In this document: positions 15,680 to 51,928 of the stretch, piece after piece
Layout: every line of letters begins with the position of its first letter
Numbering within the stretch: the first letter of the stretch is position 1
Origin: Candidatus Spongiisociaceae bacterium
GTDB lineage: Bacteria > Actinomycetota > Acidimicrobiia > Spongiisociales > Spongiisociaceae
DNA length: 64,000 bases
Assembly: GCA_965213975.1 (NCBI GenBank)
Contig: CBDCAR010000001.1
Span: forward strand, 32,134 to 96,133
Direction of reading: 5' to 3'
Made by a program: the position numbers and the translations under genes
The notes under the pieces: generated by a model
Seen by the model: only the letters and a program-made list of their open reading frames with translations
What the model was told of the DNA's origin: nothing
Databases searched by the model: none

Positions 15680-15790
15680 TATGAGAGATATTTGACCGGG
15701 TTCGCTGGGTTGGCGGTTCGGTGTCGTCCCAGCGTGGTCACCCCAAGAGAATACTCTTATGAGAGATATTAGGCAAGTATCTCTCATAAG
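15680..15790 (-). other. Putative tyrosine-recombinase site 1: inverted core plus direct accessory motif
   Basis: 16-bp perfect inverted arms ACTCTTATGAGAGATA (15753-15768) / TATCTCTCATAAGAGT (15778-15793) around a 9-bp spacer. Third TATCTCTCATA copy at 15680-15690, immediately upstream of the recombinase. Confidence 0.8.
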
Positions 15791-15880
15791 AGTTTGAGTG
15801 GGGATCACAGCCGCAACCGTGGGGAGGCGGTCGTCGGCTCTGTTGACCCGTGGCCATAGAGACTATGGTACAGAGCGAGT

Positions 15881-16282
15881 GTGACAAAATACGGTGGTTA
15901 CATGGCGGACTGTTTGACGCATCCCGAGAAGGACCTACTTCACATGGACGACAACACCCAAGAGGTCATCCGCAACGTCTCCAAAACACTCTGCGGTGCC
16001 CGGTTCCGCTTATCGGCGGCGATCTGGATCCGGACCCAACCCCAAGACAGCAGGTTCTACCAGCGGCAGATCGCGGAAGGTATCGGAACCGACGCCCGCT
16101 ACGTACGCCGCGAAATGCGGATACTCCAACAGCTCGGCATGATCACACCCCAACCCCCATGCGGACGCGATGTGCGACGCTTCTACCAAGCCGACCACAC
16201 ACACCCACTCTGGACGATCATTGACAGCGCCCTGACCGCCTGCGCCGAACTCGACCTAATGAGCGGTAATGCTTCCCGGTGA
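15881..16282 (+). CDS. Winged-helix DNA-binding protein
   Basis: FYQRQIAEGIGTDARYVRREMRILQQLGMI wHTH pattern; upstream of hsdM. Confidence 0.6.
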   Translation: MTKYGGYMADCLTHPEKDLLHMDDNTQEVIRNVSKTLCGARFRLSAAIWIRTQPQDSRFYQRQIAEGIGTDARYVRREMRILQQLGMITPQPPCGRDVRRFYQADHTHPLWTIIDSALTACAELDLMSGNASR

Positions 16283-16363
16283 CGCCAATGGGAATACCTT
16301 CAGCTGGCGAGTGGCTGCGGGTGAACGTGACGGATGGGCAGGGACGATGAGGGCTGGCGCTGT

Positions 16364-18472
16364 ATGAATGTCGCTACGCACCACCAACTGGCCGGGTTCA
16401 TCTGGCGTATCTGCAATCTGCTGCGAGGGCCGTTCAAGCCCAAAGAGTACGGTGATGTGATCCTGCCTCTCACCGTACTGAGGCGTTTCGACTGTGTGCT
16501 GGCACCCACTAAGACGGCTGTCCTGGAAGCCGACAGGGAGTACAGCGAGCAGATAGACACCGTGCGCCGTCACCACCTTGAGAACGCAGCGGGTGTGCCG
16601 TTCTATAACACATCGCCGCTGGGTTTCGAGCAGTTACTCAACGATCCGAACATGGTCGCTGACAACCTCCACGCCTACATACGGGGCTTCTCCCCGAACG
16701 TTCGGGACATCATGGACAGGTTCGGGCTGGGCGAACACATCGCCCGTATGGACGAACGCGGCATCCTGTACGAGGTTGTCCGGCAGTTCGCCCGCGTCGA
16801 TCTGTCACCGGACCGTGTCGACAACATCCAGATGGGCTACGTCTTTGAGGAACTGATTCGGGTCGGCGCGGAACACTCCAAGGACGAAGCGGGGGACCAC
16901 TTCACGCCCCGAGAGGTAATCCGGCTCATGGTCAGCCTGCTGCTGTCGCCGGAACCCGACCTCGGCAAGGGGTACACCATCAAGAAGATCTACGACCCCT
17001 CCTGCGGGACCGGGGGGATGCTCTCCGCCGCGGATGCCTACCTGCGGGAACACAACAGCGAGTCGAAGCCGCTGCTCTTCGGCCAGGACTGGAATCCCGA
17101 GTCATGGGCGGTCTGCAAGTCCGACATGCTGATCAAGGGCGACGACGCAGACCGCATCATCTTGGGAGACACGTTTGTCGAGGACGGCTACAGGTACCGG
17201 AACGACGGTAGCCGCTGGACCTTCGACTACATGCTTGCGAATCCACCGTTCGGCGTGGAATGGAAGGTACAGAAACAGTTCATCGAAGACGAGCACAAGA
17301 CCCTCGGCTATGACGGCCGCTTCGGGGCCGGACTCCCGGCTGTCACAGACGGATCGCTGCTGTTCCTCCAACACATGCTCTCGAAGATGGAGCCCGTGGA
17401 CAGACACGGCGCTGGCGGCAGCCGGATCGCCATCGTCTTCAACGGCTCACCGCTCTTCGCCGGGGGTGCTGGCCGCGGGGCGAACCGCATACGACGCTGG
17501 ATCATCGAGAACGATTGGCTCGAAGCCATCGTCGCGTTACCCGACCAGATGTTCTACAACACCCCCATCTCCACCTACATCTGGGTGCTCACCAACCGCA
17601 AAGAGCCCCACCGGGTGGGGAAGGTGCAGCTCATCGACGGTCGGCAGTTCTTCGTCACGATGCGCAAGAGCCTCGGCCAGAAACGCCACGAACTCTCCGA
17701 AGAACAGATCGACGACCTCACCCGCATCCACGGCACCTTCGTGGACGGAGAAACCCGGGACCTCACCGACGAGGACCCTGTCACTCATCAGCCGCGCACA
17801 AGACCCCGCGTGGTAAGCAAGATATTCGACAACGACGACTTCGGATACCGCGAAGTGACCGTGAAACGGCCGCTACGCCTGAACTTCGCGGCCACCCCCG
17901 AACGGATCGCCCGAATCGAGGGGCAGACCAAGTTCCAGAATCTTGCCAAGAGCAGGAAACGTCCCGGCCCGGCCCGCGACACCCAAATAGAAGCCGGACG
18001 TGAACAGCAGGACCAGATACGCGGCCTGCTCCACACTCTCGCCCAGACAACCGAAGGTGCCATCACCCGCGACCGCCAAGCGTTCCTCAACCTGCTCTCC
18101 GACACCGCCAACAAGGCTGGCGTCCGGCTGCTGGCACCACATCGCGCAGCCATACTCGCAGCACTCGGAGAACGGGACCCACAGGCCAGCATCTGCCGAG
18201 ACCGCCACGGCAACCCCGAACCAGACCCCACCCTGCAGCGCACCGAAACGGTTCCCCTGAACACCGACGTCGACGACCACATCGAACGCGAAGTCCTACC
18301 ACACTTCCCCAACGCCTGGGTAGACCACCCCGCAGAAAAGATCGGATACGAGATCCCCCTCAACCGCCACTTCTACGTCTACGAACCACCACGCCCCCTC
18401 AGCCGCATCAAAACCGACCTCGTACAACTAGAAACCAACATCGTCCGACTACTCGCAGAACTCAACGAATGA
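16364..18472 (+). CDS. hsdM: Type I RM methyltransferase subunit
   Basis: FIWRICNLLRG, DHFTPREVI, YDPSCGTGGML, ANPPFG. Confidence 0.96.
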   Translation: MNVATHHQLAGFIWRICNLLRGPFKPKEYGDVILPLTVLRRFDCVLAPTKTAVLEADREYSEQIDTVRRHHLENAAGVPFYNTSPLGFEQLLNDPNMVADNLHAYIRGFSPNVRDIMDRFGLGEHIARMDERGILYEVVRQFARVDLSPDRVDNIQMGYVFEELIRVGAEHSKDEAGDHFTPREVIRLMVSLLLSPEPDLGKGYTIKKIYDPSCGTGGMLSAADAYLREHNSESKPLLFGQDWNPESWAVCKSDMLIKGDDADRIILGDTFVEDGYRYRNDGSRWTFDYMLANPPFGVEWKVQKQFIEDEHKTLGYDGRFGAGLPAVTDGSLLFLQHMLSKMEPVDRHGAGGSRIAIVFNGSPLFAGGAGRGANRIRRWIIENDWLEAIVALPDQMFYNTPISTYIWVLTNRKEPHRVGKVQLIDGRQFFVTMRKSLGQKRHELSEEQIDDLTRIHGTFVDGETRDLTDEDPVTHQPRTRPRVVSKIFDNDDFGYREVTVKRPLRLNFAATPERIARIEGQTKFQNLAKSRKRPGPARDTQIEAGREQQDQIRGLLHTLAQTTEGAITRDRQAFLNLLSDTANKAGVRLLAPHRAAILAALGERDPQASICRDRHGNPEPDPTLQRTETVPLNTDVDDHIEREVLPHFPNAWVDHPAEKIGYEIPLNRHFYVYEPPRPLSRIKTDLVQLETNIVRLLAELNE

Positions 18473-51451: not shown

Positions 51452-51505
51452 GGCAGACGCTACAGAACAGTATGCCCAGAGTGTCAACTCAGGTATATAA
51501 GCCCC
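51452..51505 (+). repeat. Junction repeat resembling the TnpB right-end terminus
   Basis: ...GTCAACTCAGGTATATAAGCCCC vs element GTCAACCCAGAGATATAAGCCCC; also matches 6323-6358 and 11471-11510. Confidence 0.75.
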
Positions 51506-51529
51506 TTAGGGAATGAGCCATGAGACGAG

Positions 51530-51811
51530 ATGAAAGTCCTTGATCTGCTTCGGGTCCACAAGCCGATCTTGGTAGAGCGTTTCGATGTGACCGAGCTTGC
51601 CCTCTTCGGTTCATTCGCACGCGACACGGCCGACGAGAACAGTGACATCGACGTGCTAGTCAGGTTCGCGGGGACGGCCACAGCAAGGCCCTACTTCGGG
51701 GTGCTGTTCTACATCGAAGACCTGACGGGTCGTCCGGTGGACCTGGCGAACACGAAGTTCCTGCGGCCCGAGCTGCGACCCTACATCGACCGAGAGAAGA
51801 TAGTCATCTGA
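51530..51811 (+). CDS. MNT nucleotidyltransferase (MntA-like antitoxin); no HEPN partner follows
   Basis: LFGSFARD..SDIDVLV, DLTGRPVDL. The likely original start ATG 51520 (MRRDE) is shifted by one extra A. Confidence 0.88.
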   Translation: MKVLDLLRVHKPILVERFDVTELALFGSFARDTADENSDIDVLVRFAGTATARPYFGVLFYIEDLTGRPVDLANTKFLRPELRPYIDREKIVI

Positions 51812-51817
51812 CCCTGC

Positions 51818-51928
51818 CTTACGAGAGATACCTTCCCAATATCTCTCATACGGGCAGAGTCGTCTACTTGAAGTGCTGGGACAACGCAGCAACACCAACC
51901 CAACGAACCCCGCCAAATATCTCTCATA
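51818..51928 (+). other. Putative tyrosine-recombinase site 2, co-linear with site 1
   Basis: CTTACGAGAGATA-N9-TATCTCTCATA plus accessory TATCTCTCATA at 51918-51928; ungapped 111-bp alignment to the reverse complement of 15680-15790. Confidence 0.8.

Follow-up and report, generated by a model that had tools for sequence, protein, structure and literature searches.

The 64,000-nucleotide stretch analyzed here (the window) covers positions 32134 to 96133 of C2, the smaller contig (182.7 kb) in a two-contig, 2.6-Mb genome assembly of a Candidatus Spongiisociaceae bacterium, whose other contig, C1, measures 2.43 Mb; on the basis of its type IV secretion genes, C2 is read as a 183-kb conjugative plasmid. 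Within the window lie two inverted 111-bp units, site 1 and site 2, the first of which is directly upstream of the gene for a tyrosine recombinase of 305 amino acids (aa). With moderate confidence in the reading as a whole, we take each 111-bp unit to be a cognate, multipart site of this recombinase, the recombinase and its adjoining site to be a stand-alone resolution module, and site 2 to be an orphan sibling; the same reading makes recombinase plus site the putative module by which an actinobacterial branch of Tn3-family transposons resolves its cointegrates. Coordinates below are window positions unless another locus is named.

The two sites and their recombinase

Site 1 (15680-15790, minus strand) aligns without gaps to site 2 (51818-51928, plus strand) taken in reverse complement, with 81 of 111 positions identical, so that the pair of inverted 111-bp sites described in an earlier note on this DNA is real; the 80-bp flanks outside both sites are 21 to 26% identical, which is the random level. 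A repeat search recovers the pair as two inverted matches (15680-15733 with 51875-51928, 83% identical, and 15758-15790 with 51818-51850, 88% identical), and a self-blastn returns it at an E value of 2e-15. Each site holds three copies of TATGAGAGATA, arranged as an 11-N9-11 palindrome plus a third half-site 78 bp off, and these three motifs match at 32 of 33 positions between the sites, versus 49 of 78 elsewhere (hypergeometric P=6e-5). With at most one mismatch, TATGAGAGATA occurs six times in the window against an expectation of 0.15, and the search for more copies that the earlier note had proposed found exact copies in the whole genome (C1 plus C2) confined to site 1 and site 2. The gene-proximal half of the site is ~85% identical between the two, and the 24 bp just inward of the palindrome are equal in length and unrelated in sequence. 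Recounting gave the same figures as the hand counts reported earlier: 12/13 for the outer arm (CTTATGAGAGATA versus CTTACGAGAGATA), 11/11 for the inner arm (TATCTCTCATA), 8/8 for the GCTGGGAC block, 31/34 for the 34-bp proximal block, and 6/9 for the spacers. "Sibling sites," as the pair had been called, is a fair description.

Site 1 is ordered palindrome, accessory region, third half-site, start codon, and reads, in gene orientation, CTTATGAGAGATA-CTTGCCTAA-TATCTCTCATA, 67 bp, TATCTCTCATA, 10 nucleotides (nt), and the TTG start of the recombinase gene. Its putative crossover core occupies 15758-15788 (TATGAGAGATA-TTAGGCAAG-TATCTCTCATA, 11-9-11), and the third, direct half-site occupies 15680-15690 (minus strand, TATCTCTCATA on the gene strand), 78 bp start to start from the proximal core arm. 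Site 2, which has no recombinase gene, starts 7 bp after the mntA stop codon and reads, on the plus strand, CTTACGAGAGATA-CCTTCCCAA-TATCTCTCATA, 67 bp, TATCTCTCATA, with its core at 51820-51850 (TACGAGAGATA-CCTTCCCAA-TATCTCTCATA) and its third half-site, again TATCTCTCATA, at 51918-51928 (plus strand), 37 nt upstream of the ATG of a small open reading frame (ORF), ORF77. The polarity of the sites relative to the downstream gene is identical. The spacers, which in gene orientation are CTTGCCTAA in site 1 and CCTTCCCAA in site 2, differ at positions 2, 4, and 7 of 9, and all three differences fall in the central 7 bp.

The recombinase gene (14752-15669, minus strand; TTG start, GGAG ribosome-binding site) encodes a simple two-domain enzyme with a Phage_integrase domain (Pfam, 1.5e-17) and a SAM-like N-domain; a Pfam domain search found no arm-binding domain. 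Residues R144, K168, H241, R244, H267, and Y276 are invariant in an alignment of eight family members and agree with the catalytic R-K-H-R-H/W-Y signature expected of an active tyrosine recombinase. The best relatives in the PDB are XerD (1e-5) and Brujita gp33, and none of the curated family models matched the protein above cut-off. The genome encodes three tyrosine recombinases (the 305-aa enzyme and two chromosomal ones, presumably XerC and XerD) and no serine recombinase, such that the 305-aa enzyme is the sole site-specific recombinase on the plasmid. As had been noted, it stands beside site 1 only.

The recombinase family, its sites, and known counterparts

Homologues were collected as 503 proteins (E value ≤1e-20), and GTDB species genomes yielded 560 loci, nearly all from Actinomycetota; a tblastn search with the recombinase against 72,556 plasmids (E value ≤1e-20) returned Actinomycetota only and thus no sign of a close sequence relationship to TnpI, which was itself left out of the alignments. 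The closest homologues belong to Acidimicrobiia, some in records with sponge-related names, and every close homologue examined is preceded by an 11-N9-11 palindrome and a third, direct half-site exactly 78 bp start to start from the proximal arm, with conserved GCWGGG and GTGAACCC boxes between the two. A sequence-only site model (trained on a set that includes site 1 and site 2, which makes the scores of these two circular) finds the recombinase gene directly preceded by a full site in 9/9 further fetched metagenome and genome loci with 54 to 78% identical recombinases, and the copies in genomes G026, G028, and G018 likewise have a full site upstream. When the 80 genomic loci and 148 control regions were scanned blindly for the rigid geometry, with no model of the motif (11-mers, 9-bp spacer, 78-bp offset), 20 of 79 loci beat all 148 control scores, and many more have visibly real sites at lower scores.

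Homologues from Nocardiopsis, Micromonospora, and Salinispora (40 to 46% identity) repeat the arrangement perfectly (33/33) with a different motif, TGTGACAGAGA-N9-TCTCTGTCACA ... TCTCTGTCACA. Half-sites covary, agreeing on average at 8.9 of 11 positions within a site versus 7.5 of 11 between sites, and a variable triplet is often the same in the proximal arm and the third half-site. Across loci, the sole constant neighbor of the site is the recombinase. The architecture is a family trait, and sequence comparison strongly supports the recombinase-site reading at the family level, including the earlier description of tyrosine-recombinase sites made of an inverted core and a direct accessory motif. 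Because of the covariation of the motifs and their position, the recombinase probably binds all three half-sites. In the chromosomes of relatives, the site is whole and beside the gene, which points to res-like behavior and not to a split attP.

A Tn3-family transposase gene (tnpA) lies within 6 kb of the recombinase gene at 29 of the 80 genomic loci surveyed for this neighbor. In L078/L079 (61% identity, 11 contigs), tnpA is divergent from the recombinase gene, the site lies in the 138-bp gap between them, and the gene calls include no second resolvase within 6 kb; tnpA is likewise divergent, with the site in the gap, in G018. Full-length tnpA occupies the divergent position in L085, L087, L088, and L098 (the rigid scan recognized the upstream site in L085 only), and N-terminal tnpA remnants abut the palindrome in L028 and L029. 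In intact elements, tnpA encodes a protein of about 990 aa with DUF4158 and DDE_Tnp_Tn3 domains, typical end repeats (GGGGT...GTAGCAAATGGAC...ACGGTTTCAG) are found at the end of tnpA, the presumed crossover subsite adjoins tnpA, and the accessory subsite adjoins the recombinase gene. On Rhodococcus and Streptomyces plasmids, 40% homologues lie near genes annotated "Tn3 family transposase." Other homologues are found in defense islands with no transposase nearby, among type I restriction-modification (RM), GmrSD, HigB, Abi, and NYN-methyltransferase genes. The literature searched yielded no description of an actinobacterial Tn3 tyrosine resolvase of this type.

Resolution modules recognized in the Tn3 family are TnpR/res, TnpI/IRS, and TnpS-TnpT/rst; res sites carry resolvase-regulated promoters, and toxin-antitoxin (TA) genes often adjoin them (PMC7157771). 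In Tn4430, the IRS precedes tnpI and measures 116 bp, with an inverted core followed by two accessory motifs in direct orientation (PMC2847244); the site of Tn5401 has a part in transcriptional regulation as well (PMC7157771). The present module shares with these TnpI/IRS systems a tyrosine recombinase encoded just downstream of a ~110-bp site, a site that combines an inverted core with accessory copies of its motif in direct orientation, and, in relatives, membership of a Tn3-family module. The two differ in that the sites of the window have a single direct accessory motif, fixed at 78 bp, whereas the IRS has two adjacent ones; in that 11-bp arms and a 9-bp spacer replace the 14-bp motifs, 4-bp spacer, and 6-bp stagger of the IRS; in that tnpA is divergent in relatives of the window recombinase but colinear in TnpI transposons; and in the extra conserved GCWGGG and GTGAACCC boxes and a home genome that has no transposase. 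The comparison with TnpI/IRS drawn in the earlier note is functionally apt, given that homologues with the same site adjoin a divergent Tn3-family tnpA with the site in the gap, and the analogy holds in the sense of "works like," as distinct from family membership: the module may be regarded as a functional analogue with its own architecture.

The divergent arrangement of tnpA, site, and recombinase gene in intact relatives is also that of Tn3 res/TnpR, although TnpR is a serine recombinase with three dimer-binding subsites and the present chemistry is tyrosine based; the module resembles res/TnpR by its layout and IRS/TnpI by its chemistry. On plasmids, res/resolvase modules that stand alone are also used to resolve multimers. 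With Cre/loxP (including heterospecific lox variants) and FLP/FRT, the module has in common a simple tyrosine recombinase and an inverted-arm core; in both of these systems, spacer identity decides which sites pair, and FRT has a third, direct copy of the arm. However, loxP and minimal FRT need no accessory arm, whereas the present family keeps the third motif at 78 bp and the boxes phylum-wide. The closest sequence relatives are Xer-type, and the cer and psi sites of XerCD enforce resolution by accessory sequences; yet the recombinase scores 73 bits against a cut-off of 335 for the XerC/XerD family, acts as one predicted enzyme where XerCD has two, and faces an 11-9-11 instead of an 11-6-11 core, and the accessory element is its own motif, where cer and psi are bound by PepA, ArgR, or ArcA. 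Integrons (IntI/attI) are a poor match, with 16 bits to the integrase model against a cut-off of 265.

Several loci show further variation on the site. In G026, sites are split near the GCWGGG box by insertions (L068 3487-6530; also L064 4356, L067 10251, L070 6913, and L066 2670), one of which contains IS110-family and ISL3-family transposases flanked by CCCGATTATG repeats, and these positions look like an insertion hotspot in the style of "res-hunter" elements. A mid-site crossover or an integron-like cassette array, considered for the partial sites and the thrice-repeated CCCGATTATG of G026, was rejected, the inserts being IS110/ISL3 elements. Elsewhere in G026, two modules of a 46%-identity subfamily (L065/L066, at 1.4359 and 1.4646 Mb) lie 29 kb apart with their palindromes facing inward, the same geometry as in the window, with Tn3 end repeats and C-terminal stubs of tnpA close by. 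A metagenome contig, L077, has a second site-like element with GGTAT-type arms (2951-3049), 2.9 kb upstream of the main site and with no recombinase.

Proposed role and competing explanations

In the mechanism that we propose, two protomers would bind the 11-N9-11 palindrome, where strand exchange would take place, and a third would occupy the direct half-site, which lies at a distance of 78 bp beside the gene start. This half-site and the GCWGGG and GTGAACCC boxes would together act as an accessory arm that shapes the synapse and probably autoregulates the recombinase gene. On the plasmid, transposase and transposon ends would have been lost, with the recombinase-plus-site module surviving alone, and plasmid multimers or cointegrates would most likely be resolved by site 1 x site 1 recombination; such resolution, plus autoregulation, is the most economical role for the module here.

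Several observations weigh against this reading. The bacterium's own genome contains no DDE_Tnp_Tn3 or DUF4158 domain (Pfam), no tnpA fragment (tblastn with two TnpA proteins), and no relic of Tn3 end repeats (blastn-short and a position-weight scan with five end repeats, the best score on C2 being 12 versus 32 to 54 for true ends). The features that mark Tn3 transposons, end repeats of ~38 bp and a DDE transposase, are thus present in relatives and missing here: the module stands alone because its genome has neither, and a role in resolution is, for want of a transposase, an extrapolation to this plasmid. Many homologues sit in transposase-free defense islands, and the module may therefore have another role. 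Scans of site 1 and site 2 for a consensus promoter or terminator found none. A sequence at 52949-52976, TTGTCCTATAA-GTTACA-TTATGTAAAGC (11-6-11), has the look of a dif-type XerCD site, and this candidate could already provide dimer resolution through the host XerCD. Site 2, as described below, is a clean orphan, unlike the truncated-gene orphans of relatives, and both the overlap region and the effect of the spacer differences would depend on the cleavage positions. Finally, binding and recombination at the sites of the window, the crossover position, the resolution role, autoregulation, and a block through spacer heterology are all things that we infer from sequence.

Orphan sites are common among relatives, where they keep the first 60 to 280 bp of the recombinase gene, that is, a truncated gene. 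At site 2, by contrast, homology ends at the third half-site or at most 12 nt further, with unrelated DNA on both sides, and no recombinase remnant follows it (tblastn at an E value of ≤50; family hidden Markov model [HMM] at maximum sensitivity with all filters off). A deleted recombinase paralogue after site 2, tried as a candidate, was rejected on these negative searches. The refuting scenario of the earlier note, in which the motif is only an autoregulatory operator remaining from a lost paralogue, is partly tenable for site 2, although no trace of such a paralogue was found. The recombinase should still bind site 2 in trans, because its three motifs are nearly perfect. Exchange is another matter: any 6- to 8-bp overlap centered in the spacer holds two or three mismatches when the two sites are paired, and mismatches of this kind block productive exchange in Cre, FLP, lambda Int, and Xer. 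The spacer differences argue against efficient inversion of the 36 kb, and little or no exchange is expected between site 1 and site 2 because the central spacers are heterologous.

The invertible 36-kb segment that had been suggested for this region is accordingly unsupported. In this scenario of a programmed switch, which we consider unlikely, the recombinase flips the DNA between the inverted cores and so changes the flanks that the RM and conjugation genes face. Both sites are inverted and complete, their binding motifs are kept at 32/33 positions, and one recombinase suffices; moreover, TnpI of Tn4430 can invert DNA between inverted minimal cores that lack DR1-DR2 and, with the accessory motifs, can even yield products between misaligned cores (PMC2847244). 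Inversion systems of the Hin/Gin, Rci shufflon, or phase-variable hsdS type have inverted sites with matching central sequence, however, and the inverted sites of the window do not match there: three of the 9 spacer positions differ, each of them within the central 7 bp. Accessory arms in studied resolution systems favor deletion between direct repeats (PMC2847244), and both outward genes would keep their own accessory arm after inversion, leaving no obvious promoter swap. The flipped arrangement is seen in no related genome, since no close relatives exist: near-identical DNA was not found in sequence collections, and the search for other genomes with the same arms gave no match in genome contigs and a single metagenome match, an unrelated AT-rich hairpin. 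Lastly, inverted repeats of 113 to 375 bp that are 93 to 96% identical (5155-6007 and 12599-12710 versus 54593-54811 and 60386-60757) and contain a GGGGCTTATATCTCTGGGTTGAC element bracket the same central region as the two sites, and would be better substrates for homologous inversion than the 111-bp sites. A similar GGGGCTTATATCTCTGGGTTGAC-like element occurs at 6324-6359 and 51470-51505.

A second explanation, which we rate as improbable, is that the motifs are operators only, through which the recombinase or another regulator represses the recombinase gene and ORF77, and that no recombination takes place. The distance from the third half-site to the start codon is 10 nt for the recombinase gene and 37 nt for ORF77, the two sites are oriented alike with respect to the gene that follows, and transcription at res is under resolvase control in Tn3 and Tn5401 (PMC7157771). 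Against it stand the retention of every catalytic residue across the family, the position of the recombinase as sole candidate resolvase in intact Tn3-family relatives, the canonical crossover-core form of the 11-9-11 palindrome, and the lack of a promoter consensus in either site; regulation and recombination are, in any case, compatible with each other.

The neighborhood of the sites is mosaic. The helicase gene inside the 36 kb (23199-28559) is 83% identical to positions 2009-7345 of L072 (G018), and the C-terminal part of a winged-helix-like ORF beside site 1 (16010-16253) has 90.6% nucleotide identity to positions 12140-12383 of the same locus, where it forms the tail of a 297-aa ORF. In G018, which belongs to another genus, these counterparts flank an intact tnpA/site/recombinase unit, in an order and orientation that differ from those of the window. 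Such rearranged sharing fits the mosaic, module-swapping history that is usual around res sites. It also suits a third explanation, which we consider quite improbable: the two sites would form a heterospecific pair, each recombining with its own kind on another replicon, and a double exchange would swap the 36-kb block of RM and conjugation genes. In keeping with this, the sites have the same protein specificity and different spacers, homology stops exactly at the outermost motifs with unrelated DNA beyond, the helicase (83%) and winged-helix (~90%) counterparts are placed differently in G018, and homologues recur in defense islands. The explanation is wholly inferential, however; no second replicon is known with either site, and although a close homologue, L030 (78% protein identity by BLASTP), has a spacer one base off that of site 1, no homologue has a spacer that matches site 2.

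Very improbable is an attP-integrase system of an integrative element, with the sites as attachment sites or as attL and attR of a conjugative block: despite the distant PDB match to a small Brujita-type integrase and the type IV secretion genes between the sites, attL and attR would be direct, each with part of attP, where both sites are complete and inverted, the sites are whole beside the gene in relatives' chromosomes, and the enzyme has no arm-binding domain.

Neighboring genes and implications

The 36 kb between the sites do hold RM and conjugation genes, as the earlier note had stated: a type I RM system, a 1782-aa double helicase, GmrSD, a methyltransferase, and type IV secretion genes. 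Divergent from the recombinase gene, the order is a 133-aa winged-helix-like ORF, hsdM, hsdS, hsdR, and the double helicase. The winged-helix-like ORF (15881-16282, plus strand), which heads the type I RM operon, has no Pfam or NCBIfam match. It was considered as the binder of the site motifs and rejected: its sole homologue in the fetched loci (G018, 84% aa identity) lies downstream of the recombinase gene, and the other loci of that fetched set contain none (the later 80-locus survey was not searched for it). Between site 1 and the winged-helix/hsdM operon lies a perfect palindrome, CCATAG-AGA-CTATGG (15854-15868), a candidate operator through which the winged-helix regulator would control the type I RM system in the manner of a C protein. 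A direct repeat of 58 bp, 88% identical, links the hsdM end/hsdS start (18482-18539) with the middle of hsdS (19186-19243) and is the usual HsdS conserved-region repeat; hsdS is single and the window contains no inverted hsdS fragments, giving no sign of an hsdS shufflon.

At site 2, the gene for an MntA-like nucleotidyltransferase antitoxin (51530-51811, plus strand) abuts the outer arm and has no HepT partner; the outer arm begins where hepT would normally start. ORF77 (51966-52199, plus strand), an orphan of 77 aa, occupies the place expected of the recombinase gene after the site; it has no family match, and a search of 29 genomes from the same taxonomic family gave no homologue. Exact-sequence look-ups of five flanking proteins returned four singletons, and the fifth, the winged-helix ORF as delimited here, is absent from the collection.

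For the plasmid itself, a 36-kb "invertible segment" is not to be assumed; there is a slim chance that, through use of the sites as a heterospecific pair or through tolerance of spacer differences, the restriction-plus-conjugation block could be swapped between replicons or inverted. For the family, these comparisons use sequence alone to define the cognate site of a large, as yet unnamed clade of tyrosine recombinases in actinobacteria, and link that clade to Tn3-family transposons, whose resolution modules have until now been catalogued as TnpR, TnpI, or TnpS/TnpT (PMC7157771). The geometry is rigid all the way from Acidimicrobiia to Streptosporangiales and Micromonosporales: the core is 11-9-11, and the third half-site lies at exactly +78 bp. 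Between clades it is the arm sequences that differ, and they therefore form a natural series of specificity variants, from which the family could yield new orthogonal recombinase/site pairs. The recurrent placement of the module by RM, Abi, and TA genes hints at a possible route of defense-gene mobility, and stand-alone site/recombinase units of this family may shuffle defense islands in Acidimicrobiia and other actinobacteria.

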